DNA from: Methanobacteriota archaeon
GTDB lineage: Archaea > Methanobacteriota > Methanobacteria > Methanobacteriales > Methanobacteriaceae
DNA length: 64,000 nucleotides
Direction of reading: 5' to 3'
Assembly (NCBI GenBank): GCA_963787255.1
Contig: CAWBCJ010000029.1
Location: 640,001-704,000, forward strand
The position numbers and the translations under genes were made by a program. The stretch's first letter is position 1; every line of letters begins with the position of its first letter. Shown piece after piece: positions 805 through 63,926 of the stretch. The notes below the pieces were generated by a model. It made no database searches. It was not told the origin of the DNA and was given only the letters and a program-made list of their open reading frames with translations.

Positions 805-1269
805 ATGCGAGATAAACGATTTATAGCGGAACATCGGGGCGGACCTCTAAAAAAGGAACAGCATTACCAGCTAATTCAATGGGCTTGTGACTGCTCGGAG
901 CATGTACTACATCTTTTCGGTGAAAAAATAGATGAACGACTAAAAAATGCACTAAATGTGGCTAAAAAGTGGAAACAAGGAAATGCTTCAGTTGGTGATG
1001 CAAGAAAAGCTTCATTAGGTGCAATTACGGTAGCAAACGAATCTTCAAACTTGACTGCAATTGCAGTGGCTCGTTCTGTTGGACACGCTGTTGCAACTGC
1101 TCATATGGCTGACCATTCATTAGGAGCAGCGTGGTATGCTTTGAAAGCAGTAAAAAATGCAGGTAAATCAATAGATGCAGAAAGAAAATGGCAAGATGAA
1201 CAATTACCCTCAGAAATTAAGGAGCTAGTCTTAACTGCAAGGAAAGCAAAAAAATTTAAAAAGATATAG
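805..1269 (+). CDS. Imm5-like helical putative immunity protein
   Basis: WACDCSEHVL ... ARSVGHAVATAHMADH ... ERKWQ pattern typical of the Imm-5-like family. Confidence 0.6.
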   Translation: MRDKRFIAEHRGGPLKKEQHYQLIQWACDCSEHVLHLFGEKIDERLKNALNVAKKWKQGNASVGDARKASLGAITVANESSNLTAIAVARSVGHAVATAHMADHSLGAAWYALKAVKNAGKSIDAERKWQDEQLPSEIKELVLTARKAKKFKKI

Positions 1270-3068: not shown

Positions 3069-3689
3069 TTGATCAAAAATAAACCAATTGCAATTATCTT
3101 AGCAGTTTTAACATTTATAGTTGGAAGTATTTTACTGACATGGATTATCTTTTATCTTGCTAAAATACCTCTTTCTTCTATCTGGGAAGGTCAGAATCAG
3201 CTCTATGTATTCACTGCAATTCTAGCGAGTGTAATACTTGCATCTATGGTTTATGGTCGCGGTAGCAAGCAAAGAGCATCTGATGTCACAAAATTTTTAA
3301 ATGAATCTTTAGAATTGGAGCTTAAAGAGAAGGATGTTTATGGATGGTTGCGGAAGTTTGAGCGAATTCCTATATTCGTAGTAAATTTGTATATTTCTAT
3401 GAATATAAATGTAGTAAAGGAATTTGAAGGTCAAATGGAAGAAAATTATGGGCATCTAACTGATGAAAGCATTTTAAAAATAAAGAAAGTAATGAATGAA
3501 CTGACTGATGAAGACCTTTTAAAAATAAGGAAAATTCTGGAAATGCCTGTTCCAGAACTTCAAAATTTATTGAATGAACTCTATTTGATAACTAACATCG
3601 AACAGTTTAAGATATTGGCTGAACCCAAAGCAGAGTCATTAATTGAACTAAACGTGGAAGAACTAAAAAGGATTCTATTTAATGATTAA
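3069..3689 (+). CDS. Hypothetical membrane protein (two N-terminal TM helices)
   Basis: TTG start after GGTGA SD; two hydrophobic segments followed by a helical soluble domain. Confidence 0.6.
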   Translation: MIKNKPIAIILAVLTFIVGSILLTWIIFYLAKIPLSSIWEGQNQLYVFTAILASVILASMVYGRGSKQRASDVTKFLNESLELELKEKDVYGWLRKFERIPIFVVNLYISMNINVVKEFEGQMEENYGHLTDESILKIKKVMNELTDEDLLKIRKILEMPVPELQNLLNELYLITNIEQFKILAEPKAESLIELNVEELKRILFND

Positions 3690-10123: not shown

Positions 10124-11269
10124 CTACTCTTTTTGTTTCATAATGACGCCAACAGAACCTGTTCCGAGAGGTATCGGTTGACCTATTATAATATTTTCAA
10201 TTATTCCGGTAAGATGATCAATTTCTCCTCTTATACTGGCCCTTAAGAGGTGTTTTCCAGTCTCTTCAAAAGAAGCTCTTGCCAGTACACTTGCTTTCTC
10301 ACCGCTTATACCATGTCTTCCTATGGATTTTACAGAACCATCTGCAGTCATCATATCTGCAACCAGCATGATATGCCTTACATCCACCGTAAGACCTTGT
10401 TCTTCCATTGTATTTTGAGCTTCCAGTATTACTGAGTTTCTGGCAGCTTCAATTCCTAGAACTTTTTCGACTTCATGAATGTCATTTGTACTGGTTCTGA
10501 CTTTATCAATACCTTCCATTTTTAAAACGGATCCAAGATTTGAACCTTCTGTGTGTATAACCCACTCAACACCTTCTTTACTAATAACTACCTTACCAAT
10601 GTTTTTTACACCACTGATTTGAAGGTCTCGGACTTTGTCAGCAAGAAGTCTTAATTCTCTTATACTTGGTGCTGGAGGTTCAAAACTTAGTATATTGTTA
10701 TCTATTTGAACTCTTTTAAAAGCTTTTTCTATCCTCTTCATGATGTCATCAAGATCAAGTCTTTTGTCCTCGATCTTTTCTAAATCGAGTTCAACCACAA
10801 TATTCATATCAGCATAATTGAGGTTAAAGCTGCTTAAAATATCATTCATATTACTTTTACCAATCTGGTTGGCTATCCTTCTTACAAACTCTTCATCAGT
10901 TCCATATTCTTCTTCAAAATAGATAGCCATAGTTGGTGTTGATATTTTCTTTCTGGCATCCACAATTTCAATCAGTCTTGGAAGACCGAGAGTAACGTTT
11001 AATTCTGCTACCCCTGCATAGTGAAATGTTCTCATGGTCATCTGAGTACCAGGTTCACCAACAGATTGAGCTGCAACTGTACCTACAGCTTCCCCGTCTT
11101 CAACGGTCGCTCTGTCGTAGGCTTTTTTAATTATGTCAATTAACTCGTCCAGTTCGGCTTTATTCAGCTTATGCCTTTCACTGGCATCAGCAATTTCTTC
11201 GATCAAGCTTTCAGGAAAGTCAGCCTTCTTCTTCTTCAAAATTCTAGTGATACTTTTTACATCCGGCAC
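10124..11269 (-). CDS. rpoA2: DNA-directed RNA polymerase subunit A''
   Basis: [17 protein letters not shown]; ARASFE. Confidence 0.97.
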
Positions 11270-11282
11270 AATAACCACCCAC

Positions 11283-13895
11283 CTATTTACCTGATTTAAT
11301 CCTTATCTCTTCAATTACCCTGTCAATATCCACTACTCTACCGTAATCACTCTTTGCAGGATCCACTTTATCTTCACCATACATGGTCTGGATTATAACG
11401 CCTCTGTTATCCCTCACGGTTCCGTCAGGTTTAACACTTAAATCCTGGAGAGCGTTTACAAGTCTACGCTGCATGTAACCACTTTGCGCGGTACGTATCG
11501 CTGTATCTACAAGACCTTCTCTACCACCCATAGCGTGGAAGAAAAATTCCAGCGGATCAAGCCCGGTCTTGTAACTTGAATGAACAAATCCACGTGCCTT
11601 CGCACCTAATTCACGTTTCTTAAAGTGTGGAAGTGTCCTTTCACTGTAACCTCTTTCAATACGGCCACCACGAACAGATTGTTGACCTACACATGCTGCT
11701 ATCTGAGTAAGGTTAAGCATTGAACCTCTTGCTCCTGTAAGTGCCATAATTACAGCATGGTTTTCGTTAATATCAAAGTAACTTTCTGCTAATACACCCG
11801 ATTTGTCCCTCGCTTCTCCAAGCTCCTGCATTATCTTCATCTCAAGGGTTTCCTCAAGACTTCTTCCAGGGAGAGCTTCAAGTTCCTCGTTTTCGTATGC
11901 TTCAATGAGCAGTTCAACCCTTCCTTCAGCCCGGGATAAAAGTTCTTCAATTCTCTCTTTTGCTTCTTGAGGAATCTCTTCATCGTCGGTACTGGTTGTA
12001 AATCCTTTCTTCATTATTCCAGAAATTGCAAGTTTGGTCGCTGAATCAAGGAATTCCCTGGCCCTGTCAGTACCATATTCTTTAACTATAGAGTCGAGAA
12101 TCTTACCTGAAAATGATCCGAATGCTTTATCGTCCATTACACCGCTCTTTAAATTACCGTCTTCAATTACAACATATGCATCGTTTTTACATTCTTGTTT
12201 AAGGCATTCATCACATTTTCTGCAGATTTCTGCCTGGTAAACCATGTTCATATCTTCAGGGAGTAAAAATGAGAATATTTCTTTTCCAGTCCATGAAGTA
12301 CCTCTTGGGTCAGGTAGAGGTATATTTGCTCTTTTTAGAATCTGGAAAACTTCATCATCTTCAAATACACTGCTTTGTCTAGTTAAAAGATAAGCACCTG
12401 ATATGTGGTCGTGTATTCCACCAATAATCGGGCCCCCGAATCTTGGTGAAAGAATGTGTTCTTGAACCCTCATTAATGATTTTGCTTCTGCACGTGATTC
12501 TTCTGTCTGGAAAACGTGCATGTTCATTTCGTCACCGTCAAAATCAGCGTTGTAAGGAGGACATACACAAAGGTTAAGTCTGAAAGTCTTGTGTGGTAAA
12601 ACTCTAACTTCATGAGCCATCATCGACATTCTGTGCAGTGAAGGCTGTCTGTTGAATAATACAATATCCCCATCTATTAAATGTCTTTCAACTCTGAAAC
12701 CAACCTCTAATTTTTCAATTATGGCTTCTTTAGTTTCTTCGTATACTCTTACCTTTCTTCCGTCAGGTCTTTCTACATAGTTTGCTCCAGGGTGTACGCT
12801 GGGACCGTTTCTGATGTAATCTTTCATCTTTTCAATATTCCATGGAGTCACGTATATTGGCACGGTGACTTCTGTGGCAATCATTTTAGGAACACCGACT
12901 TCGTTAATACTTATGTTTGGATCAGGGGATATAACCGTCCTTGCGGAGAAGTTAACCCTTTTACCTGATAAGTTACTTCTGAAACGTCCTTCTTTACCTT
13001 TAAGCCTCTGAGCAAGTGTTTTTAGAGGTCTTCCTGACCTGTGTCTTGCTGGAGGTACACCTGATGCTTCGTTATCAAAATAAGTTGTAACGTGATATTG
13101 TAAAAGTTCCCAGAGGTCCTCTACAATGAGTTGAGGAGCCCCAGCTTCCATATTCTCCTTTAATCTCTGGTTAATTCTTAAAATATCCACTAATTTGTGA
13201 GTTAAATCATCCTCAGATCTTTCACCGGTTTCCAGTGTAATTGATGGTCTTACAGTAACTGGAGGAACTGGTAAAACAGTTAGAACCATCCATTCCGGTT
13301 TTGCAACCTTTGGGTTTATTCCCAGGAGCAGATGATCTTCTTCTGGTATTTTTTCGAGCCTTTCCCTTACTTCACTTGGAGTTAACTTGTAACTTCCTTC
13401 AACAATGGATACGGGCTTGTCAATTTTGACATCTTCCTGTTCTTCTTCGCAGTGGGGACATTTATCCCTTCTTGCAACAGTGTATATCTCTTTAATGATA
13501 GCGGTCAAGCTTTCTTCATTCTTGATCATTGCATTCATTTTGTCTTTATAATCAACAATCTCTGTATCAGTTAATAAAACTCTTGCACATTCTTTACATG
13601 ATGATCTGAGTATTTTATGAATTGTATCAGCAAAACCAACGTGAATTACAGGCCTTGCTATATTTATGTGACCAAAGTGCCCCTGACAGTCTCCACCTTT
13701 TGAACCACAGGACCTACATTTGAGTCCTGGGTCGATAACTCCGAGTCTTGGATCCATTAGCCCTGCTTCAATTGGATATCCATCCTCGTCGTAGGTATCT
13801 GGAGTTACTATCTTGGTAACTGACATTTTCCTTATGTCTTCTGGAGACATCAGACCAAAATTAATCTGAGCGATTTTCTTTAAAATTCCTTTCAA
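11283..13895 (-). CDS. rpoA1: DNA-directed RNA polymerase subunit A'
   Basis: Catalytic NADFDGD; Zn-binding cysteines; probable TTG start. Confidence 0.98.
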
Positions 13896-26037: not shown

Positions 26038-26844
26038 TTAATTTTTCTTTTTTAATTTAATTAAAATGATCTCTGGAGGTGCAAAAATCCTTAAAGGTGC
26101 TATAATGGTTCCGATACCATTACTTATCACTAAAGTTGTGTTGTCTAACTTTTTTACTCCAGTTAAGTACTGCTGCCCGTATTTAGAGTGTGTAATTGGC
26201 GCCCATAATCCCAATAAAGTAATTTGTCCACCGTGTGTATGCCCTGAAAGCATTAAATCAACTCTTGATTTATCTACTTCTGGAAAATAGTCAGGATTGT
26301 GGGATACAAGTATTACAAAGTCATTTTTATCTGCATCACCTATTGCCATGCTCTGGTCTTGGGAATCCCGTATATAATCTCCCACACCACCAGCACGGAT
26401 TTTTGCACTATTATTTTTAATCTATAACCCTTTATTTCCGATGTATGTTATATTTGCATTTTTCATGGCAATAATTGATAATTCAGGAGGATCATTATTT
26501 CATAAAACTCCATAAACGCCTAGAGGAGCTTTTAATTTTGATAATTTATTAAAGCAAGAATTTACTTCAGGCGAATCATCACTTACATAATCCCCTCCAA
26601 GAAGGATCATGTCTGGATTTAGTTCATTCACTTGGCTAACCAGATCTTCTGTTCGGCGATCATTAAAAAATAAGCTTTGATGAATATCAGTTATAAAAAC
26701 AATTTTCTTACCGTCAAAATCTGTGGGAATGTCATTTGATTCTATAATTATTTCTTTTGTTTGAATAAAGTAAGGTTCCATTAAACCATAAATTAAAAAT
26801 GTAATCATAATAATTATGAGAGCTGTAATGATTTTTTTGAGCAT
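26038..26844 (-). pseudogene. Metallophosphoesterase (YkuE-like) with two in-frame stops
   Basis: DIH, GGD, SHNPD, GHTHGGQ; TGA at 26500-26502 and TAG at 26422-26424 in one continuous frame. Confidence 0.85.
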
Positions 26845-31396: not shown

Positions 31397-32531
31397 TTAT
31401 TTGCATGATTCAATTTCTTTTAGAATTTCATCTGGACGGTGCATTTCTCCACCTATTTTTGGAAGTAGAGATACTTCAGCATCACATTTCGCAACTCTTT
31501 CCACTTCATGAACAATTTGACCAAGGTTCATTTCAGCAACAATAATATGATTCGCATGCTTGGCTACAGAATCTAATGACTTTATCTGGGAAAGGCCACA
31601 CAATTTCTAATTTAACATGCCCTGCCTTAATACCTTCATCACGTGCTTTTTTTACTGCAGTAATTGCAGATCGAGATGGTGCCCCGTATGATACTACAAT
31701 AACATCTGCGTCTTCGGTATAAAGCTCCTTAACTTGAGTTAATTCATCTCTATGCTTAAGTATTTTATTACACAATCTTTTAACAAGTTTTGAATGAGTT
31801 TCAGGATTTGATGCATCAGGATAACCCCTTTCATCATGAGTAAGTCCTGTAATATGCATTTTATAACCCGCTCCAAATGGTGGCATTGGTGAAACTCCAT
31901 CAGGCTCTGCCTTATATGGTAAAAACGTTTCTGGCCCTTCTTCAGGCATTTTCCGTGGAATAATATCTACAGTCTCAGGTATGACTATTTTTTCTCTCAT
32001 ATGGCCCGCAGTTTCATCACTCATAACCATAACTGGAACTCTATATTTTTCTGCTAAATTGAAGGCTTCCACAGTAAAATCAAAGCACTCCTGTACTGAT
32101 GCTGGTGCTAAAGCTATTATTTCATAATCACCATGTGATCCCCACCGTGCTTGCATCATATCACTTTGAGAGGTCATTGTGGGCTGTGCAGTTGAAGGAG
32201 AACCTCTCTGTACATCTACAATAACAAGAGGTGTTTCTGTCATGGCAGCATAACCAATATGTTCCTGCATCAAAGAAAAACCAGGTCCAGAGGTCGCTGT
32301 CATACATTTCATTCCTCCCCAAACGGCACCTATAACTGCACCAAGTGCTGAAATCTCATCTTCCATTTGTATGAATGATCCACCTTCTTTGGGTAGAAAT
32401 ATGGCCATATCTTCTGCAATTTCAGTAGAAGGTGTAATAGGATAACCAGCAAAAAATCTGCAGCCTGCTTTAATGGCTCCTCTTGCACAGGCTTCGTTTC
32501 CTTGTATAAAATAATGAGTGATTTTTTCCAT
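31397..32531 (-). CDS. korA: 2-oxoglutarate:ferredoxin oxidoreductase alpha subunit (apparent 1-nt insertion near 31571)
   Basis: GYPITP, ATSGPG; C-terminus (EMNLGQ) continues in another frame. Confidence 0.88.
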
Positions 32532-33018: not shown

Positions 33019-33391
33019 TTATTCATCTGCTTCTTTAACATACATTAAAGGATATTTAAGCTCTTCTATATATTCCATCATTAAAACTGCCTTTTTATCC
33101 TCATATTTTGAAATAACTTTTATATTCATCATTTCCCCACTTAAAGATACATAATCAAACTCACTTTTAGATTCTTCAAGTATTTTTCTATTTATTTTTA
33201 CTTCAACTTCATCAATACAAGGCTGAAGCTCCATGGCAGTTTTTATAGATTTTTCCAAGTTAGGATGCACTTTCTAAATTTACAGGAGTCCCAACAAACT
33301 GATGAAATAGGGCACCCATAGTAATTGCACCTTCAAATATTGCTCTTTCCCTATTTGAAATGTTTTTAAAGTATTTTTCGTCAATATCCAT
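33019..33391 (-). CDS. mptD: Archaeal dihydroneopterin aldolase (apparent 1-nt insertion near 33262)
   Basis: RERAIFEGAITMGALFHQFVGTPV in the upstream frame; QP...YPLMYV downstream. Confidence 0.8.
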
Positions 33392-33511
33392 TAAATCACC
33401 GGATAATCTTTCAACCTCTAAAATTAATTATTTTTTAATTATTAATTAATATAGGTTAATTTTTTACATCTTAGTTGAACCGATTTTAAATATTTAGAAA
33501 GTTTCTACAGT

Positions 33512-34249
33512 TTAAAATTCAAACCAACTCTTAATATTGGATATTTCGGATGTTATGTTATTTGGAGGTATTGGAAAGACATATGCATAGATTAGAAACA
33601 GAGTAAGCGCAACAATGGCTAATTAATAAAATTATTTTATCATCATTAACCGGATAGAAGATAGGTTAATATTAATCCAAATCCTAAAAAGAGGCTTATA
33701 TACAAGATGGAATATGGAATTTGAGTATTCGAATCTGGGTTAGTATCGCCCACATAGCTAAATGGATGTACCTCTGTTTGATTGGCCTGAATAATTAGTC
33801 TTCCTTGGTTGATCCCAAAGGGTAACAGGTAATTAAAAATAGAGGTTTTTCCTTGTTCTACAGATAACTATAAGATGCTGGAACAATGTATGACTTAACT
33901 ACATTATACTCAACATTTCCTATGCCTGGCCACGATAAAGTTATATTATCTCCTTTCTTAAGCTTGTCAAGATTTAGAAAAGGAGAACCGTAAAATGTTC
34001 TATGGCCAAATAAAATAACCGTTCCTAATCCTGGTATAGGATGATTCTAGGCTCGTGATATATGCCGTAATCAATGGATTTGTTATTTATGCTTTGATCA
34101 ATCCCAATTGATGGAATTTTTAAGTAAGGAACAGTGGTTTGATTTTCATCAACATTAGTTTCTGCAGCTGCATAATAACTTACTTCAACTAAAAAATAGA
34201 GGGATATTATCAACATCCCTGCTATAATAAAAACTGTAGATAATTTCAT
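33512..34249 (-). CDS. Sortase (class E-like) with C-terminal TM helices; several frameshifts in this sequence
   Basis: Reconstructed across frames: LKIPSIG, GIYH, LFGHRTFYGSPFLNLDKLKKGD, LFLITCYP, KERL (His/Cys/Arg triad); 3' end approximate. Confidence 0.75.
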
Positions 34250-34295
34250 GTGTACTATCGTTTTGTCGTTGATTTTATTTGTAATTATCTGTTGC

Positions 34296-35225
34296 TTATC
34301 TCATGAATCTGGCGTAAACTAAACCACCTGCAGCTAATACGCCTCCAATTACAAATAGACCGTATGGAAGTCCTGTTTCTTTGGTTGGTACTGATGGAGT
34401 TGAGGCTGCGCTTGTTTTTGGAATAGATGAAGATGCTTTTCCAGTTCCGGATGATGAAGATGAAGTAGAAGGCCATTGATAGATATAAGTTATTCCCTGT
34501 GATCCGCCTGCAGCTAAATTAAGATCCCATGCAGCGACTTTTCCATTCAGTACAAAGTCTTTGTCTAAAAACGTTACTTTTGGATTACTGTATATCAGTT
34601 TTGAATCAACAGGTACAATTGGGGCTCTTATTATCCCTGAAACAGCATGTGCATCTCTATTTACAACTAATAAACAGAATTTACCTCTCCAGTATTGAAG
34701 ATCTAAATCTGGATTAAGCATTTCTATTTCATTTGGTTGGAACCAAGATGAGCCTAGTCCTGGATCTGGAATTAGGGGCCAGTAAATGTTTGGTTGGGAA
34801 GCCTGATTTAATATAGCAAAAATCAACGGTTGGTCAGTTGAATTTCCAATGGCTCTAAGTTTGAAACTTACAGTTTTTGTTTCACCTGGTTGTATCTTCC
34901 AACCATAATCTCCACCAAGTTCTGGAGAAACAGCATCTATCATTTTAAGTGCTTGAGGGTCTGTCCAGTCAATTACCCAATTAATTGTACCGTTTAAATT
35001 AGCAGTGTATTTTTGACTTATTTTAAAATACTGAACGTGATCTTTGTTATTTTTTATTTTAACAGTTATTACTGAAGCTAGATCAGTCATATATACACTT
35101 ACGTTACTTGGAGTTATCCATGTTTCTGCACCATATGCCACATTATTATTTGATATAATCCCACATGTTACACCTAAAACTGCCAATAAAACTATCAGTC
35201 CCACACTTATCCTATTTAGATCCAT
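34296..35225 (-). CDS. Secreted beta-rich surface protein with C-terminal sortase-type sorting signal
   Basis: N-terminal signal; S/T linker; VPTKETG motif + TM helix + basic tail (RFMR). Confidence 0.75.
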   Translation of the reverse strand: MDLNRISVGLIVLLAVLGVTCGIISNNNVAYGAETWITPSNVSVYMTDLASVITVKIKNNKDHVQYFKISQKYTANLNGTINWVIDWTDPQALKMIDAVSPELGGDYGWKIQPGETKTVSFKLRAIGNSTDQPLIFAILNQASQPNIYWPLIPDPGLGSSWFQPNEIEMLNPDLDLQYWRGKFCLLVVNRDAHAVSGIIRAPIVPVDSKLIYSNPKVTFLDKDFVLNGKVAAWDLNLAAGGSQGITYIYQWPSTSSSSSGTGKASSSIPKTSAASTPSVPTKETGLPYGLFVIGGVLAAGGLVYARFMR

Positions 35226-35299
35226 TATATCCCCTTTTTTTATTTAATCCTGATTTTATAAGATTCCTAATTTTAAGTGGTTATTTATTTTTATTCTTT

Positions 35300-36592
35300 T
35301 TAACCGTATATTGCTGTAAGCTCTTTTATCATCCATTGTGGGGCTTGCTGAGTTGGGACTGTCAATATGACATTGTTCATATTCTGTATAAGGAATATTG
35401 CATTTTCCCTTGGAACTTCTAGCAATATCAAGTACTGTGCATCAAGCTCTCCTAGATTTGAAGCTCTTTCAAAGTCTGATAATCTCCATCCATAAGCATT
35501 TAATGTTGAACTTACCTCGCTTTCATCCCAATTTCTAGAAGCAGCCGCCCTTAAAAGCTGTTCAACGTCATTTGACGCTGATTCACTACGTGCACTAGAT
35601 TGAATTAACGTGTTAATGGCAATGTCTTGAGCATGTGATTTATTAGCTGTAACCACGCCGCTGTCTCTTGCTCTTAAGATTGCAAGAACAGTGGCACCGC
35701 TTATGTTAGGGGTGTTGTTTGAAACGGTTTGATTTGATGTAGTATTCATTAAATAAACATCAACTGAGTTTCCAACATTAATAAGACCTCCTGCTGCCTG
35801 TAATCTTGAAATAATCATTGGAATAGCTATGGTGTCTGGAGTTTTTATTAGCATGTTAGATAAAACGCTTGCATCTGCTTCATTTACTAATTTCTGTGCA
35901 TCTACAACTTTCATTATTATATTCTTTTGACTACTTGCAGAATAAACTATCATAACTCTGCCATAGGGATCTTTTTGAGTTTCAATCTGTTGATTTTGAT
36001 ATTCTCTCCAGGCCTGTGTTGCAGGGCCAAGTACATCAACAGCAAGTGCCTGTTCTGGAGTTTCTGCGCTATCTATCTGAAGTCTAAGGTCTATTCCTCT
36101 AGGATCTGTTGCTAAAGCTCCTGTGAAGTATGTATTTACTTCATTAATCTTTGTTTGTTTTGCGCTTCCTAGTGCATCTTGATAAGGTGCATAAACTAAA
36201 AAATAATAACCGGCTCCAACAAGTACGATAAGAATAATTGCAAAAACTGCCGCACCTACAATTGTTCTTTGATCATCGTCAGGGATTCTTTTTCCAAAAC
36301 CACCCATACCTCCTTTTTCGGGTTTTTTGCGGTCTGACCTCTTTTGTGGAGGTTTAAGCCTTGGTTTTTCGCCAGGTTTGGCCATAGGCTTTGGTATTGG
36401 CCGTGGTATCTTTCTTTCGGGAGGGGCTTTCTTTTCATCTTTTTTTTCAGTATCCTTTTTGCCAGATACTTTGCTAACCATGCCCTTAAGACGCCCTCCT
36501 ATATCGGAATTACTCTTCTTTTTGTTATTTCCACGAAGATCAGGAGTATCTTTATCTTCGTCGCTTTTTTTTCCTCTTATTTTATCTAACAT
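35300..36592 (-). CDS. DUF515-family bitopic membrane protein with CpaB/RcpC-like motif
   Basis: K/P-rich cytoplasmic N-terminus, single TM, AAGGLINVGNSVDVY and TVLAI; start overlaps pssA end. Confidence 0.7.
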   Translation of the reverse strand: MLDKIRGKKSDEDKDTPDLRGNNKKKSNSDIGGRLKGMVSKVSGKKDTEKKDEKKAPPERKIPRPIPKPMAKPGEKPRLKPPQKRSDRKKPEKGGMGGFGKRIPDDDQRTIVGAAVFAIILIVLVGAGYYFLVYAPYQDALGSAKQTKINEVNTYFTGALATDPRGIDLRLQIDSAETPEQALAVDVLGPATQAWREYQNQQIETQKDPYGRVMIVYSASSQKNIIMKVVDAQKLVNEADASVLSNMLIKTPDTIAIPMIISRLQAAGGLINVGNSVDVYLMNTTSNQTVSNNTPNISGATVLAILRARDSGVVTANKSHAQDIAINTLIQSSARSESASNDVEQLLRAAASRNWDESEVSSTLNAYGWRLSDFERASNLGELDAQYLILLEVPRENAIFLIQNMNNVILTVPTQQAPQWMIKELTAIYG

Positions 36593-37292
36593 GTGGACCA
36601 CTTCTTAGGAATCTGGTGTATAAATCTATAATTGGTACTGCTAATAAGTATAGTAGCATAACGATGAATAAAAGCTTTGTGGGAAAATATGCGATAATTG
36701 ATGAAATGCTTTGGGGTAAAAGTGCTGCAATAATTAATATGCTCCCTGCAACTAATGTTTTAACACCTTTGAATTTTGGATATTTTACTGTGCTAATCAT
36801 TAACAGTGAAACCAGGATCATGATAATAAGTGCTAAATCACTGTTGAAAAATCCTGAAAGGTAAAAAGATCCCAATATCAGTGCGGTTGAGGGGATTGGT
36901 AAACCAATAAAATGTTTATCTGAGGGATCCGTGATTACATTGAACCTGGAAAGTCTCAGTATACCGCAAATAACTATCAGGAGTGCTACAATGATACTAA
37001 AGTAGGGTATTCCAAAGTTTATACTAGTTGAGTATAAAAGCATCGCTGGTGCTACTCCAAATGAGATAATATCTGATAAAGAATCAATATTTTTTCCAAA
37101 TCCGCATTCATCTTCTCTGTTTAATTTTCTAGCAACCCAGCCGTCCATTGCGTCGAAAATAACTGCTAGTAACATAAATTTGGCAGCAAGCATAAAATTG
37201 CCCATTGATATCATTACTATAGATAGAAATCCTGAAGATGCGTTAGCAATTGAAACTAAATCTGCAATAGATGTATAAGATCTGATATTCAT
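36582..37292 (-). CDS. pssA: Archaetidylserine synthase (CDP-alcohol phosphatidyltransferase)
   Basis: DAMDGWVAR...FGKNIDSLSDIISFGVAPA; RLSRFN; FIGLP. Confidence 0.92.
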   Translation of the reverse strand: MNIRSYTSIADLVSIANASSGFLSIVMISMGNFMLAAKFMLLAVIFDAMDGWVARKLNREDECGFGKNIDSLSDIISFGVAPAMLLYSTSINFGIPYFSIIVALLIVICGILRLSRFNVITDPSDKHFIGLPIPSTALILGSFYLSGFFNSDLALIIMILVSLLMISTVKYPKFKGVKTLVAGSILIIAALLPQSISSIIAYFPTKLLFIVMLLYLLAVPIIDLYTRFLRSGPHVR

Positions 37293-37546
37293 GTTAACCC
37301 ACGATCAATCATTGACAATTGGTATAAATATACTTATGTAGGATTGTCCAGAATTAAAAAGCCAAATTGATGGCTTAGAGAATATTATTAATATTTTAAG
37401 CCAAATTTTTATTATTAAATTGTTGGTTTTGCATGGGCATTATATAAATCAACTTTTCAAAAGAAAGCAAAAAGTAGCAACGAAAATCATTAAAAAAATA
37501 CCGTAATTTAGTTTTTTGTTACTTGAAATCATTTATTTCTTAAAAA

Positions 37547-38212
37547 TTAGTCATCTATCATTTTTGCAATTATAGTTTCCGCTGCTTTAGGTTTGTCCCC
37601 TTCTTCAACCATTAATTTGCAATTTTTGTATGGTAATATTAAATCGACCCTGGAGCCAAATCTAATCATCCCTAAACGTTCCCCAATCTCAACTTCATCT
37701 CCTACATTAACATATTGCACAATACGTCTTGCTACAAACCCTGCAATCTGAATAACGCCAAATTTTCCGAATTTAGAATCTATTACCACTAAATTTTTTT
37801 CATTTTCCTTTTCAATATCTCCTTTTGCAATTTTAAATTTTCCAGGACAGTATATGGCATCTACTATTTTCCCTGAAATCGGAATTCTATTTACATGAAC
37901 ATCGAAGGGAGACATGAAAGTGCTTACTCGAATTCCTTTTTCTCCTTTATCTAAAACATGTTCCATTAGATGATGGTCGTATTCTACAATCTCTATTTTA
38001 TCTATTTGTCCTTTTAATATTCTGCCATCTGCAGGAGCTACAATAACTCCCTCCCCTTCAGGTACATTTCTTTTGGGATCTCTAAAAAATTGCATTAGAA
38101 ATGCAATAATTGAAAAAATTATGAAACTCAATAAGAAATATCCAAACAGAAGTGGTAAAATTGCTAAAGTTAAGAGCACTCCTACCTTTTTTAAAGTTCC
38201 TTTAACGAACAT
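37547..38212 (-). CDS. psd: Archaetidylserine/phosphatidylserine decarboxylase proenzyme
   Basis: FFRDP, APADG, DVHVNR, self-cleavage RFGSRVD. Confidence 0.93.
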   Translation of the reverse strand: MFVKGTLKKVGVLLTLAILPLLFGYFLLSFIIFSIIAFLMQFFRDPKRNVPEGEGVIVAPADGRILKGQIDKIEIVEYDHHLMEHVLDKGEKGIRVSTFMSPFDVHVNRIPISGKIVDAIYCPGKFKIAKGDIEKENEKNLVVIDSKFGKFGVIQIAGFVARRIVQYVNVGDEVEIGERLGMIRFGSRVDLILPYKNCKLMVEEGDKPKAAETIIAKMIDD

Positions 38213-38645
38213 TTGTATCACAAGTTTGTAAATTTGAATAATAATGAATTTTACTAAATATTTTTGTTTATTTATCTTTAATAGGTTTTTTTCACTTTTA
38301 TTATATGTTATATATAATATGAATAGTTTTTTAAATCCATTAACTGTTTAATACAATTACTACAACAAAAACAAAAACCTTTAAATATCTTTTTGTTAAA
38401 ATAATATTATTTAATTATCCTTTTTGCATCTTTTTAATCTATTAATATGCATTTAAGTTACTATTTTATCATTTTATAAAAGTTTATATAAGCATTCATC
38501 TTATAATTTGTCATATATTATAATATAAAAGATTTATAAATTTATACTGTATATTACATATAATGGATTCAAATATATCCCCAGTATCTAAAATATTATT
38601 ATTAAACTAAAATAACGGATCTTTACCATGAAGACGTGGTAGTTT

Positions 38646-39275
38646 ATGATTGAAAATAAAATTAAAACATTAAGACAGGCTGCAAAGGTATCCACTGTGC
38701 AGGATTCAGATAAAATATGGTGTGTTATAGCAGGTAATGAAGAAATGGTTAATAATATTGCCTATGAAGCCATAGTAAACAAAGAAAGAGTTAAAGTACT
38801 GTTTAGAGAGCATATTACCTCGAGAGAATCTTTCGTTACCAAAAAATTTGATTTTATCATGTTATATGGTGAAACCAGTAAAATTAGGGATCTGAGCTCT
38901 ATATCTAAAGAAAACGGTGGAGCATACCTTAAGATAGCCCCATATTACGTTAAGGAAGAATCTAATCTAATGCTGGTTGTAGGGCCTGAAGACAGCATTA
39001 AGAAGTTTCTAGGCGATATTGAAAAAAGCACAGTTAAGGCTTCTTTCCTTTTAGAAGATAAAACAACCGGTTTTATAGAATCTGATGTTTATATAACTCG
39101 ATGGATGCCTAATTTCGTTCGAAATGTGGCGGATCCATTATTTAAAATGGCGGATGTCGCATTATCAACAGTTCTAATATCAACTGAGGAAGAACACATC
39201 GAGAAAATCAAAGAAACAGCTAAGAATAATAAAATATTTGCTATAAGATTTAAAGATATTTTGAAGGAGGAATAA
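38646..39275 (+). CDS. Hypothetical protein coupled to the mreB-like gene
   Basis: 209-aa ORF ending 1 nt before the mreB start; the GGAGG SD lies in its 3' end. Confidence 0.7.
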   Translation: MIENKIKTLRQAAKVSTVQDSDKIWCVIAGNEEMVNNIAYEAIVNKERVKVLFREHITSRESFVTKKFDFIMLYGETSKIRDLSSISKENGGAYLKIAPYYVKEESNLMLVVGPEDSIKKFLGDIEKSTVKASFLLEDKTTGFIESDVYITRWMPNFVRNVADPLFKMADVALSTVLISTEEEHIEKIKETAKNNKIFAIRFKDILKEE

Positions 39276-39276
39276 A

Positions 39277-40350
39277 ATGAATCTTTTTGGAAAAAAGAAG
39301 GAAGAAGAAGAAATAAAGAAGGAAGGAATGGATAATACATTGGGAATTGATTTAGGTACACTTAACACTGTCGTTGCAAAACCATCAGGAGATAAATTTG
39401 ATCTTTATAAAATACCATCAGTAGTTGCCGTTAAAAAAGAAGATCCTTCATACGTGCTTGCAGTAGGTAACGATGCTAAATCTATGCTTGGAAGAACTCC
39501 GGAAGATATTGTAGCTGTAAGGCCTCTTAGAAAAGGAGTTATAGAAAGCGTGGCTCAAGCAGAAGCTCTATTAATCTACGCAATGGATAAAGGTGCAGGA
39601 GAGTCCATGGAACATATCGATAGGATTGTTATAGGTATTCCTGGAGACGCATCAGAAGTTGAAAAAAACGCTGTTGAGGAAATTGGTAGAAAAGCAGGGG
39701 CTAGTTATGTTTTAGTTATAAGTGAAGGGCTTGCAGCAGCCATAGGTGCAGGATTACCAATTGCAGAAGCATCAGGTACTATGGTTATTGACATAGGTGC
39801 AGGTTCAAGTGATATTGTTGTTATTTCACTTGGCGGAATTACAGATATCGAAACTGTAAGGCTTGGTGGAGATAACATTGATGATAATATCGTGGATAAA
39901 GTTAAAGAAATGTTCAAAGTTGAAATAGGAATTCACGAAGCTGAAAAAGCTAAAATGGAAGTAGGAATGGTGAATTCAGGTTCAGATCTTGAAATCGTAA
40001 AAACTACAGTAATTGGTAAGGATATGGAAACTAACAAGCCAAGAGAAGTGGAAATAGATTCAAAATTAGTTGCAGACGCTGCAGAACCTGTTGTTGCAAA
40101 ACTTATTGAAGCATTAGCACTAATTTTAGAAAGAATGTCTCCAGAACTTATATCTGGAGTTTACAGGGAGACAGTAGTTGTAGGTGGAACATCACAGCTT
40201 AGAGGATTAAAAGAAAGGATATTTGATGAAGTAGGCATCCCTGTTGAAATTTCAGATGATCCTATGACAGTTGTTGCTAAAGGAGCTGCCATTGTGGCTG
40301 CAGAGCCAAGGGCACTTGAACCAGAAGTACGTTTAAAAGCAATGAAATAA
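39277..40350 (+). CDS. mreB: MreB/Mbl-like actin-fold ATPase
   Basis: GIDLGT, RPLRKGVI, AAAIGAGLP, DIGAGSSD, VGGTSQL. Confidence 0.88.
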   Translation: MNLFGKKKEEEEIKKEGMDNTLGIDLGTLNTVVAKPSGDKFDLYKIPSVVAVKKEDPSYVLAVGNDAKSMLGRTPEDIVAVRPLRKGVIESVAQAEALLIYAMDKGAGESMEHIDRIVIGIPGDASEVEKNAVEEIGRKAGASYVLVISEGLAAAIGAGLPIAEASGTMVIDIGAGSSDIVVISLGGITDIETVRLGGDNIDDNIVDKVKEMFKVEIGIHEAEKAKMEVGMVNSGSDLEIVKTTVIGKDMETNKPREVEIDSKLVADAAEPVVAKLIEALALILERMSPELISGVYRETVVVGGTSQLRGLKERIFDEVGIPVEISDDPMTVVAKGAAIVAAEPRALEPEVRLKAMK

Positions 40351-41112: not shown

Positions 41113-41952
<840 letters not shown>

Positions 41953-41969
41953 TTTCAGGAAGTAATCCC

Positions 41970-42368
41970 ATGGCTATGGACGTAAACAAGTATAGAAACA
42001 AATTACGAAATAATAACCCACGTTTCAACATGGTTCCATTTATTGATATTATTTTTACGATTCTAATTTTTTTAATGGTTACAAGCAGCTTCGGCGCTGC
42101 AGATCAAACCCAATCTGTTTCTGGAAAACCACAAGTATCACAGCAAACTGGTGGACCGTCTGAATATTATTTAATCCCAGTTGCAGGTTTAAAAAAGGTA
42201 ACGGTTAATGGAATAGACATGTCAAGCTATATAAGGAATGGTGCAATTGCAGTTCATACAACTGTAATTGATGAGGGTGAAATAATAATAAGGCCTAAAA
42301 ATGGAGAAATTATTATAACTACTCCTACTAATTTTCCTCCAAATGAGGCAGTAAAGGCATCAATATGA
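41970..42368 (+). CDS. ExbD/TolR-like protein
   Basis: NMVPFIDIIFTILIFLMV with the conserved TM Asp. Confidence 0.88.
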   Translation: MAMDVNKYRNKLRNNNPRFNMVPFIDIIFTILIFLMVTSSFGAADQTQSVSGKPQVSQQTGGPSEYYLIPVAGLKKVTVNGIDMSSYIRNGAIAVHTTVIDEGEIIIRPKNGEIIITTPTNFPPNEAVKASI

Positions 42369-49252: not shown

Positions 49253-50454
49253 ATGATTCTGAATATAAGAATCGACCATAAAACAGCGGATATTTGCACA
49301 ATTGAAAAATCTACTCGTCAAATGGACGAGCTCTTTGAAAAAATAAAGAGTGAATGTATTGTAGATGAGTATATTCAGATAAAAACATGCAATCGCGCCG
49401 AACTGTATATTTTTCTAGACAATATTAACCATAATAACATTGATTTTGATAATTTTATAGTTGAAACCGATGACGATGCCTTAAAACATCTTCTTAGATT
49501 GTCATGTGGCTTAGAATCCATGATAATAGGTGAGGATCAAATATTAGGACAAATAAAAGAGGCCAGAAAAAAAGCATTTCTACAGGTTGCTGCGGCCAAA
49601 TTTTAGATACTATTTTTACTAAAGCCATCCATGTTGGCCAGTCTGTAAGAAAAAGGACAAATATTAACAAGGGATCTATTTCTATTGGTTCTGCAGCGGT
49701 TGAACTTGCAGAGTCAGTTCACGGCGACTTGAAATGTAAAAAAGTCCTTGTTATAGGTGCTGGAAAAATGGGAACTCTGGTTGCAAAGGCTCTGGCGGAA
49801 AAACACCTTAAAGCAATTGTAGTGGCAAACAGGACATATGACCGAGCTAAGTGTCTTGCAAAGGAACTTGGAGGGTCAGCAATACATTTTGATAGACTTG
49901 ATGAATCCATGAGTGATGCTGATGTTATAATAAGTGCTACAGGAGCACCTCACGCTATTTTAAATCGTGATAAGGTTAAAAATGCAGTTCCGCATGAAAA
50001 TCTCCATAAACTGGTGATGGTGGATATTGCTAATCCGCGGGACATTGACGAAGATGTTAAAGAATTAGGTGTTAAATTATTTAATATTGATGATTTAAGG
50101 GGAATAGCAGATAAAAATAAGGAAATGAGGGAGTCTGAAGCTCTTGAAGCTGAAAAAATTATTGAAGAAGAAATTTTCCTTCTTAAAAAGTCTTTAAAAC
50201 ATCTTGAAGTTGAATCTCTTATTTCAAATATAAGGGGCAAGGCAGAGAAAATAAGGATTCATGAAACAGAAAAGGCAGTTAAGATGATGGGAGATATTAA
50301 CGGTAAAGAAAAAATAATTGACGACCTCACACACGTTATGATTGATAAAATCTTCTCTGATATCATAAAGAACATTAAAACTGCAGCTGAAAATGATGAT
50401 AAAAAAATAATTGAAACTGCAGAATGTCTTTTTGCAAGAGAAAATAGTAAATGA
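49253..50454 (+). CDS. hemA: Glutamyl-tRNA reductase (apparent 1-nt deletion near 49578)
   Basis: [25 protein letters not shown], split over two frames. Confidence 0.9.
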
Positions 50455-57887: not shown

Positions 57888-58506
57888 CTACGATTTTTCA
57901 TGGATTGGAAGTGTAAAATAAAAAGTCGAACCCTTAACCAACTCTGATTCCACCCAAACACGACCACCATGGCGATCAATAATTCTTTTTACAATTGAAA
58001 GTCCAATTCCAGTTCCTTGATATTCTTCATTTGTGTGGAGCCTTTGGAATATGGTGAAAATTTGATCTTGATATGGGGAATTTATTCCAATTCCATTATC
58101 TTCTTGATCCTCTGCTAAAGCTTGAAAGAATAAATCAATGGGTCTTCTAAAACCATGAGGTTCTGAAGGTTTAATAAGGCCTAATACACCATTTACAATT
58201 CCTATGTCATTATTTGGGGGGATGACATACACTTTATTTGGTTTAACTGGCATGATTATCTTGAATTTCAAGTACTTCCATATCAGTATATCTTGCAATT
58301 AATTCTGCCATAGTGCTTTTATGTGTGGGATCTTAGATGTTGAATCAAAACAAATCCCATACCTGTATCTACTGAGGCATATTACTAAATAATTTCTCTA
58401 AAGCTTCCAGCCCACCTGCAGATGAACCAATACCTACTATGGGAAATTTGCCTTTTTCTTTGGAATTGACTTTTGATTTATTTAGAGTTTTATTCTGATT
58501 TTCCAC
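57888..58506 (-). pseudogene. CheB-methylesterase N-terminus joined to a histidine-kinase HATPase C-terminus (deletion remnant)
   Basis: GIGSSAGG and IQH (CheB); [23 protein letters not shown] (HATPase); frameshifts in the 5' part. Confidence 0.8.
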
Positions 58507-62883: not shown

Positions 62884-62937
62884 TATTACATAAAAAACAA
62901 TAGAAAAAATAGATATAGTATTACAATGGTGAGAAAT

Positions 62938-63926
62938 ATGGTAAAAATACCAGAATTAAAAAGAGGAATAGCAAATAATGTAACAGAACTGATAGGAAAT
63001 ACTCCTCTTGTAAGGTTAAACAGAATTACCGAAGGGACAGACGCAGAGGTTGTAGCAAAGCTTGAATCATTCAACCCTTTAAGCAGCGTAAAAGACAGAA
63101 TAGGAGTTGCAATGATAGAATACGGGGAAGAACAGGGACTTATTAATAAAGATTCAGTTCTTAGTAGAACCTACAAGTGGAAATACCGGTATTGCACTTG
63201 CATTTGTTGCAGCAGCTAAAGGATACAAACTTATTCTTACAATGCCCGATACAATGTCCATAGAAAGAAGAAAGTTGCTTGCACTTCTCGGTGCCGAAAT
63301 TGTATTAACTCCTGGTGCAAATGGAATGAAAGGGGCTGTAGCCAAAGGCAGAAGAACTATCCGAAAGTATACCTAATGCAGTAATGCCTCAACAGTTTAA
63401 AAACCCTGCAAACCCAAAAATCCACAGGGAAACAACTGCACATGAAATATTAAGAGATACAGATGGTAAAGTAGATATATTAGTTGCAGGTGTAGGTACT
63501 GGTGGAACAATAACAGGTATTGCAGAAGTTTTAAAAGAAAAAAACCCTGATTTTAAGGCAGTAGCAGTCGAACCAATATCCTCTCCAGTATTATCTGGAG
63601 GAAAACCCGGACCGCATAAAATTCAGGGAATAGGGGCAGGATTTGTTCCTGATATTCTTAGAACGGATTTAATAGATGAAATCATTCAAGTAAAGGACGA
63701 AGACGCTGCAAGTACATTATTAAGACTTGCAAGAGAAGAAGGAATACTTGCAGGTATATCATCAGGGGCTGCAACATGGGCTGCCATTGAACTTGCAAAA
63801 AGAGAAGAAAATGAAGGTAAAAGGATAGTAGTAATTCTACCAGATACAGGAGAAAGATACTTAAGTATGGACTGGGTATTTGAAGAAGTTTTCCATACCT
63901 ACAATCAAAAGGATTTCTCCAACTAA
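62938..63926 (+). CDS. cysK: Cysteine synthase A (two apparent 1-nt insertions near 63163 and 63346)
   Basis: [43 protein letters not shown]. Confidence 0.9.

Follow-up and report, generated by a model that had tools for sequence, protein, structure and literature searches.

Gene organization at the locus

The stretch of DNA analyzed here, referred to as the window, comprises 64,000 nucleotides (nt) of contig CAWBCJ010000029.1 (positions 640,001 to 704,000 of the forward strand) from a Methanobacteriota archaeon of the family Methanobacteriaceae (GenBank assembly GCA_963787255.1). It carries a minus-strand gene string, read from 38221 down to 33512, in which two genes for archaetidyl lipid headgroups, psd and pssA, are followed by the genes of a DUF515 protein, of a predicted surface protein and of a sortase that would process it. 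The components of the string, with protein lengths in amino acids (aa), are:

37547..38221, minus strand: psd, predicted archaetidylserine decarboxylase, 224 aa from the GTG at 38221, with an ATG at 38212 (PF02666, TIGR00164)
37293..37546, minus strand: spacer between psd and pssA, 254 nt
36582..37292, minus strand: pssA, predicted archaetidylserine synthase, a CDP-alcohol phosphatidyltransferase of 236 aa (PF01066, NF038087)
35300..36601, minus strand: DUF515 protein, 433 aa, GTG at 36601 and ATG at 36592 (PF04415)
34296..35225, minus strand: predicted sortase substrate, 309 aa, with a signal-like N-terminal helix and a C-terminal VPTKETG, helix and RFMR
33512..34249, minus strand: sortase gene of the archaeal three-helix type, interrupted, its pieces in three frames (PF04203)

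An initial annotation of this DNA had described the same-strand order psd, pssA, DUF515, a VPTKETG-tailed protein and a sortase, and had pointed to an overlap between the DUF515 start and the end of pssA. Both descriptions are accurate. The order is present, and its recurrence in related genomes shows that it did not arise here by chance; the overlap measures 20 nt from the GTG or 11 nt from the ATG three codons downstream. The reading frames of psd, pssA, DUF515 and the substrate are intact, whereas that of the sortase is not. These four intact genes are 65–89% identical to their counterparts in Methanobacterium sp. ACI-7 (locus L035). The window DUF515 is 91% identical to its counterpart in locus L002, near which a quick tree places the window within Methanobacterium.

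A predicted dedicated substrate with an unusual sorting signal

The 309-aa open reading frame (ORF) at 35225..34296 ends, as initially annotated, in VPTKETG, a membrane helix and RFMR. Ahead of this tail, its structural model (pLDDT 78.7) contains a signal-like helix, two beta-sandwich domains and a Ser-rich disordered linker, residues 255–287 of the model being disordered. T284 and G285 are invariant in 30 substrate orthologues. When the ORFs that lie between DUF515 and the sortase were collected from related genomes, 66/69 carried a TG followed by a hydrophobic tail of 18–32 residues ending in K or R. Among these 66 tails, position −4 is P in 58, position −3 is T or S in 63, and position +3 after TG is P in 65; the consensus reads [VIL]P[TS]xxTG[VLI]P[YFW][GA], then the helix, then K or R. 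A canonical LPxTG or LAxTG was found in 0/66. The substrate is the only ORF of the window with such a sorting signal, and its tail and position suggest that it is most likely the dedicated partner of the neighboring sortase. The published table for Methanothermobacter gives two sortases and 0 LPxTG proteins (PMC2812497); a non-LPxTG signal would explain why LPxTG scans yielded no substrate there.

No Pfam or NCBIfam family matched the substrate. A fold search against the PDB gave no match at E ≤ 0.001, the top rows being seed storage proteins and PapG at meaningless TM values of 0.10–0.14, and the best score in an ESM Atlas search (0.87, a DUF11 cluster) was below the lead threshold of 0.9. 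The family comprises 178 relatives at E ≤ 1e-3, all called "hypothetical protein" where named. In the orthologue alignment, the lysine K68 does not vary and is part of a conserved stretch, YFKIS.

One variant was seen in locus L010, where the substrate ORF (11049–12008) has KEAG in place of xxTG, a change to A of the T presumed to be the cleavage residue; the neighboring sortase is intact.

An archaeal branch of the sortase superfamily

A 62-aa piece of the window sortase matches PF04203 with 32.3 bits (cutoff 26.6), as does the intact ACI-7 orthologue with 65.3 bits. These archaeal sortases are about 240 aa long and consist of an N-terminal helix, the catalytic domain and two C-terminal helices with invariant YP and FP.P motifs; H82, C141 and R150 are invariant in 27/27 aligned sequences. 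Public records label them class E (NCBI; CDD cd05830), and, by sequence, their best match of solved structure is a class C sortase (8t28_A, E 2.8e-8). None of the bacterial class models is reached, the best scores being 32–43.5 bits against cutoffs of 140–165: four intact archaeal orthologues obtained 43.5, 32.0, 34.9 and 43.1 bits with the class E model NF033747 (cutoff 160) and 33.9–42.1 bits with the class C model NF033745 (cutoff 160). The protein belongs to a distinct archaeal branch of the sortase superfamily. We found no experimental study of an archaeal sortase in the literature on archaeal sortases, pseudomurein, Methanobacteriales and Methanopyrus.

A complex predicted between the sortase and residues 112–444 of DUF515 (27- and 24-row alignments) scored 0.01 against a mark of 0.32; run with no controls, it weighs neither way.

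The interrupted sortase frame

The sortase had been annotated with a His/Cys/Arg triad. The three residues are indeed encoded (His in FGHRT, Cys in LITCYP and Arg in RLIIQ), but the frame is broken and the Arg codon is out of frame with those of His and Cys. No ORF piece exceeds 74 aa, the length of the longest, and in three-frame translation the protein passes through all three frames. Frameshift-aware alignment to an intact 244-aa relative (P0138) and DNA alignment to three relatives call for seven single-nucleotide indels, five of +1 near 34045, 34032, 33840, 33654 and 33614, and two of −1 near 33868 and 33802. The read-through is identical to P0138 at 223 of 244 residues (91%) and keeps, by eye, all 29 columns that are invariant in the 27-sequence archaeal alignment, and the sortase pieces are 81% and 89% identical to the ACI-7 protein. 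Each of the 75 related loci with a sortase match has an uninterrupted ORF of 196–265 aa (75/75), that of L054 running into masked bases. A nonsense or recoded in-frame TAG at 33860–33858 was considered and rejected, the triplet lying in the shifted frame between a −1/+1 indel pair.

The window has matches to 23 ACI-7 genes, of which three are spread over more than one frame. These three are contiguous: the sortase, dihydroneopterin aldolase (DHNA) and the 2-oxoacid:ferredoxin oxidoreductase alpha subunit. The DHNA gene has a +1 insertion near 33269, with PF04038 positions 1–31 and 33–108 on two ORFs, and the alpha subunit gene (31397–32531) has a +1 insertion near 31574. The split genes look like local patches of indel error in the assembly. 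The sortase indels, too, are probably assembly error: each affects a single base, the encoded protein shows no other damage, and neighboring housekeeping genes that a methanogen needs have been hit as well. One finding weighs against this: six or seven of the eight or nine indels in the 31.4–34.3 kb segment fall in the 0.74-kb sortase, a crowding that exceeds an even spread and so leaves room for real decay of the gene in this organism.

The sortase would in that case be a true, recent pseudogene, its substrate left unprocessed or given another role, which we consider rather unlikely without dismissing it. Besides their crowding, the seven frameshifting indels within 738 bp lie mostly outside long homopolymer runs, and splits in hemA, a PALP enzyme and other window genes make a decaying genome conceivable. 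However, there is neither a nonsense substitution nor a larger deletion, the invariant residues are all retained, and the identity of the pieces to ACI-7 is comparable with that of intact neighbors (65–94%). The other split genes encode enzymes of the methanopterin, haem/F430 and 2-oxoacid pathways that a methanogen is expected to need, which argues for sequence error, and no related locus with a sortase match shows a broken frame.

Split or truncated genes besides the sortase were seen at 31397–32531, 33019–33427, 49253–50454, 62926–63926, 26038–26844 and 57888–58298. The glutamyl-tRNA reductase gene hemA (49253–50454) occupies two ORFs in different frames with 122 nt between them, a PALP enzyme is spread over two ORFs with profile positions 54–130 missing, and a phosphoesterase gene is possibly split as well; the last of these sites holds a HATPase fragment of 136 aa. 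Long genes such as those of RNA polymerase subunits and EF-2 are intact.

Conservation of the locus in Methanobacteriaceae

We surveyed the locus in one genome per species with a scan based on an alignment of 22 DUF515 sequences (A2), a broader 38-sequence alignment (A1) being too diverse. Among 191 relatives, the best 80 were kept, all of them from Methanobacteriaceae: the loci are mostly from Methanobacterium, with four from Methanobrevibacter and one or two Methanothermobacter-like, and those of Methanothermus, Methanosphaera and Methanopyrus lie outside the sample. Genes were counted by tblastn with the window proteins, each denominator being the loci that reach far enough.

The gene pssA lies upstream of DUF515 in 71/71 loci and the sortase downstream in 73/74, the sole locus without it being that of M. 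cuticularis (L071), where cobalt-transport genes follow DUF515. The pssA and DUF515 ORFs overlap in 69/72 loci, by exactly 20 nt in 48. With psd upstream in 58/65 loci, the four genes psd, pssA, DUF515 and sortase stand in order in 55 of the 61 loci readable on both sides, and the substrate gene accompanies them in 51/61. Conservation of the psd/pssA–sortase linkage, as the initial annotation had predicted, is thus borne out, and the string pssA–DUF515–substrate–sortase, usually with psd in front, is a Methanobacteriaceae-wide envelope cluster.

In the seven loci (7/65) from which psd is missing, the rest of the string stays. They belong to two lineages, a Methanobacterium subclade (L040, L052, L053 and L068) and a Methanobrevibacter clade (L071, L075 and L078). 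The substrate gene is also absent from the Methanobrevibacter loci L075 and L078, where the sortase directly follows DUF515.

An adhesin-like protein of 1821 aa (beta-helix, Big_1 and CarboxypepD_reg) is encoded on the minus strand at 3362–8827 of L075 (Methanobrevibacter sp. DSM 116169); its gene lies between pssA and the divergent gene pair listed below, that is, in the position of psd in other genomes.

Neighbor controls made use of the genes on either side of the string, which in the window are:

33019..33427, minus strand: DHNA gene, split, directly 3′ of the sortase, an unrelated-neighbor control (PF04038)
38646..40350, plus strand: a 209-aa protein with no family match and an MreB-like protein (PF06723), divergent from psd

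These neighbors proved equally constant. The sortase is followed by DHNA in 63/63 loci, RNase HII by MreB in 58/58, MreB by the 209-aa protein in 61/61 and fer4 by the 2-oxoacid:ferredoxin oxidoreductase alpha subunit (korA) in 49/49; the only junction with common breaks is that from DHNA to fer4 (41/62). The gap between sortase and DHNA (median 34 nt) is as short as the gaps within the string. Because unrelated neighbors are kept this well, conserved adjacency here does not by itself indicate shared function, and the conservation of the psd/pssA linkage does not discriminate a lipid acceptor from other acceptors.

The DUF515–sortase–MreB cluster is already known. It was described as cluster C of pseudomurein-containing archaea (Lupo et al. 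2025, mSystems, PMC11915815), made up of a DUF515 RcpC/CpaB-like group (OG0001177), a "Sortase E" group (OG0001178), a coiled-coil group (OG0001176) and an MreB/DnaK-like group (OG0000094). That study recovered the orthologous groups of the sortase and of DUF515 as specific to archaea with pseudomurein; it assigned the cluster to "pilus assembly and/or surface proteins" and judged it probably unrelated to pseudomurein synthesis (PMC11915815). The terms "phosphatidylserine", "archaetidylserine" and "DUF515" have 0 occurrences in its main text, as have "CDP-alcohol" and "phosphatidylserine" in its five supplement files, a count that does not cover the PDF figures S1 and S2. The pssA/psd link is hence not named in the searched text of PMC11915815, nor was a dedicated non-LPXTG substrate met there, the substrate gene itself not having been a query.

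Accession numbers in the supplement of PMC11915815 extend the picture beyond our sample. In M. thermautotrophicus, the coiled-coil protein is WP_010876656, and DUF515 and the sortase end in 659 and 661, so that, provided the numbers reflect gene order, psd, pssA and the substrate could fit in between as they do in the window. The DUF515 and sortase accessions are consecutive in M. smithii and four numbers apart in Methanopyrus KOL6. In Methanothermus fervidus, DUF515 (WP_013413444) is numbered far from the sortase (WP_013414141), between PdxS (ending in 443) and two class III signal-peptide, pilin-like proteins (ending in 445 and 446). If numbering again reflects gene order, the M. fervidus DUF515 can act apart from the sortase, and these neighbors suggest that it may have a pilus-related role.

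In the divergent arm of the window, the MreB-like protein matches PF06723 (MreB_Mbl) with 338.2 bits, and the 209-aa protein, which corresponds to the coiled-coil group of Lupo et al., matched no Pfam or NCBIfam family. The presence of an MreB-like cell-shape protein beside the anchoring string recalls the midcell co-localization of ArtA, PssA and PssD in Haloferax. A pair of MotA/ExbB-like and ExbD-like genes lies at 41113–42368 on the plus strand, just past RNase HII, and a gene close to the left end of the window (805–1269, plus strand) codes for a putative immunity protein resembling Imm-5 (PF21805, 138.9 bits).

DUF515 and its likeness to CpaB

The DUF515 protein matches PF04415 with 70.7 bits (cutoff 29) and belongs to a family of 132 relatives at E ≤ 1e-3 among 1.84 billion representatives. 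In its model (pLDDT 73.4), an N-terminal region that is variable and rich in Lys, Pro and Glu precedes one membrane helix and, on the outside, an RcpC/CpaB-like beta domain. The protein had been called CpaB-like; a weak likeness is there, but the scores fall below the cutoffs, at 22.1 bits against 28.8 for PF16976 RcpC (E 1.5e-4) and 20.6 bits against 71 for TIGR03177. The top Foldseek match in the PDB is RcpC (9gzr_B) with E 0.18, probability 0.72 and TM 0.21–0.33, which is not significant.

The lipid headgroup genes and their transcription

The psd product matches PF02666 (164.3 bits) and the archaetidylserine decarboxylase model TIGR00164 (231.6 bits, cutoff 230), is 89% identical to the ACI-7 orthologue, and fails the decarboxylase model of protein-sorting systems, NF038088 (anchor_synt_D, 129.6 bits against 240). 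Likewise, the pssA product matches PF01066 (60.6 bits) and the archaetidylserine synthase model NF038087 (305.4 bits, cutoff 240) and fails the corresponding sorting-system synthase model NF038086 (anchor_synt_A, 118.1 bits against 200). By these models, both are assigned to the cell's ordinary, housekeeping archaetidylserine and archaetidylethanolamine enzymes and not to the ArtA-linked type. MTH_1027 is a biochemically characterized archaetidylserine synthase (PMC7157517), and it appears from the accession numbering in the supplement of PMC11915815 to lie inside the same string in M. thermautotrophicus.

TATA-like boxes and T-runs were sought by eye and regular expression. The psd-to-pssA spacer, which has a median of 41.5 nt and a maximum of 618 nt across loci, contains in the window T5, T7 and T5 runs in the first 80 nt downstream of psd, and some 150 nt ahead of pssA stands a perfect TTTATATA; together these may be a terminator and a promoter of pssA's own. 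No T-run of at least five was found between DUF515, the substrate, the sortase and DHNA in the window. A transcription unit from pssA through the sortase is plausible on these features; pssA is probably co-transcribed with DUF515, and psd may be transcribed separately in this organism.

The acceptor of the sortase

The sortase would anchor one conserved protein to pseudomurein; we favor this reading and give it about an even chance. The sortase would cleave the substrate encoded upstream between T and G of [VIL]P[TS]xxTG, hold it as a thioester and pass it to an amine, presumably that of a pseudomurein peptide or of its lipid-linked precursor, as for characterized sortases, so that one conserved two-domain protein becomes fixed to the wall. 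The genes psd and pssA would be present as members of a long, slowly rearranging synteny block, and their position next to the other genes is not enough to involve them in the anchoring chemistry. To our knowledge, every characterized sortase uses a peptide amine, and the pseudomurein acceptor is favored for this reason and because Lupo et al. found the groups of sortase and DUF515 confined to archaea with pseudomurein, psd and pssA are of the housekeeping type, failing the ArtA-linked models, and psd can leave the locus. The pseudomurein-specific distribution of the sortase and DUF515 agrees no less with a wall acceptor than with a lipid acceptor.

Several points weigh against anchoring to pseudomurein. 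Attachment to it is an assumption drawn from the bacterial case. In almost all loci (69/72) the ORFs of pssA and DUF515 overlap, and pssA–DUF515–sortase is kept in the rearranged Methanobrevibacter loci L075 and L078, which lost psd and the substrate. The TG site stands only about two residues before the membrane helix of the substrate, and the catalytic domain of the sortase is tethered to the membrane at both ends by short linkers, so the reaction would take place at the membrane surface, where lipid headgroup amines are. The link between ArtA, PssA and PssD was found from exactly such synteny (PMC7157517), and 0 sortases are tabulated for Methanosphaera stadtmanae, so that sortase and pseudomurein are not strictly co-distributed (PMC2812497).

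Much of this evidence serves a lipid acceptor, in which the thioester would be resolved by the amine of archaetidylethanolamine or archaetidylserine supplied by the neighboring Psd and PssA, with pssA on this view translationally coupled to DUF515, leaving the substrate lipid-anchored under the wall; such chemistry would be convergent with that proposed for ArtA and rhombosortase. The constant junction of pssA with DUF515 (71/71 loci) and their ORF overlap agree with it, as does the lack of T-runs of at least five from DUF515 to DHNA, compatible with one transcript from pssA. The minimal core pssA–DUF515–sortase survives rearrangement in L075 and L078, cleavage site and catalytic domain both lie at the membrane surface, and the artA–pssA–pssD synteny is a precedent in which archaetidylethanolamine is the proposed nucleophile (PMC7157517). 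The initial annotation had proposed such an acceptor from the premise that Haloferax ArtA needs PssA and PssD, and this premise is confirmed in PMC7157517. We nevertheless judge a lipid acceptor unlikely. Unrelated neighbors are kept equally well, the sortase being followed by DHNA in 63/63 loci, L075 and L078 among them; psd, whose product would make the ethanolamine amine, is off-locus in 7/65 loci of two lineages; both lipid genes fail the curated protein-sorting-system models and pass the housekeeping ones; and in M. fervidus, by numbering only, DUF515 stands beside PdxS and class III signal-peptide proteins, far from the sortase. We know of no sortase-superfamily member that uses a lipid headgroup amine in nature, and the literature on sortase transpeptidation with a phosphatidylethanolamine nucleophile, judged by titles and abstracts, yielded no natural case.

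Class C sortases polymerize Gram-positive pilins, and the sortase might likewise polymerize the two-domain substrate head to tail through its conserved lysine, with the RcpC/CpaB-like DUF515 as an assembly or alignment factor. The class C relative 8t28_A (E 2.8e-8), the two beta-sandwich domains with the invariant K68 in YFKIS, the weak RcpC/CpaB likeness of DUF515 and the class III signal-peptide, pilin-like neighbors of the M. fervidus DUF515 by accession number are consistent with a fiber or pilus. Against it, the class C model NF033745 gives only 33.9–42.1 bits of the 160 needed, no PDB pilin fold matches the substrate at E ≤ 0.001, a single substrate gene stands with no tip or base subunit beside it, the RcpC likeness is below every curated cutoff, and the role of K68 is a guess from a motif resemblance. 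Pilus-like polymerization is hence weaker than the pseudomurein and lipid-amine options, and we hold it to be highly improbable.

The locus thus encodes a sortase system with an unusual signal, a three-helix enzyme, a dedicated substrate and a conserved DUF515/pssA context. An enzyme–substrate pair with a [VIL]P[TS]xxTG signal makes the choice between a wall-peptide and a lipid-amine acceptor directly testable, and the pair occurs in cultivable species, including, by accession order, M. thermautotrophicus. With pseudomurein as the acceptor, the substrate would be the first protein of these archaea to be defined as anchored to the wall. A lipid acceptor would be the first for the sortase fold and would change the view of what this fold does; it would also mean that C-terminal anchoring to a lipid through an amide was invented independently a third time, in addition to the archaeosortase and rhombosortase systems. 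The system could serve as a handle for work on gut and rumen methanogens.

Comparison with known systems

The window shares the bidirectional layout of cluster C, with 38646–40350 on the plus strand against 38221–33512 on the minus strand, and this layout is also seen across loci. It differs in that the class-I aminotransferase (OG0001210) was not found among the 75 window ORFs scanned. DUF515 resembles RcpC/CpaB of Tad/Flp pili in being bitopic with an outside beta domain; in contrast to them, its scores are all below curated or significance thresholds, no Tad/Flp genes lie near it among the window ORFs scanned, and its family is confined to a small archaeal group.

In Haloferax, ArtA processing depends on PssA and PssD, a link found through artA–pssA–pssD synteny in Methanosarcina (Abdul Halim et al. 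2020, PMC7157517). In both systems, homologues of pssA and psd neighbor the gene of an enzyme for C-terminal processing that has a catalytic Cys, and both have a tripartite C-terminal substrate signal, with an amine-lipid acceptor proposed for the ArtA system (PMC7157517). The window enzyme, however, is a sortase-fold protein and not an archaeosortase; its substrate tail has TG and then a helix, with no PGF-CTERM motif; psd and pssA fail NF038088 and NF038086 and pass the housekeeping models; and the window system is known from sequence alone.

Class E sortases of bacteria act on substrates with an LAxTG motif and have a housekeeping role. The window-type sortases share with them the sortase fold family, the His-Cys-Arg triad and the predicted nature of a membrane-tethered transpeptidase, and the substrates of both carry a motif, then a membrane helix, then a basic tail. 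Conversely, the archaeal enzymes carry two additional membrane helices at the C-terminus, in which YP and FP.P are invariant, their signal is [VIL]P[TS]xxTG in place of LAxTG or LPxTG (each 0/66), and one dedicated neighboring substrate takes the place of the many scattered ones served by class E.

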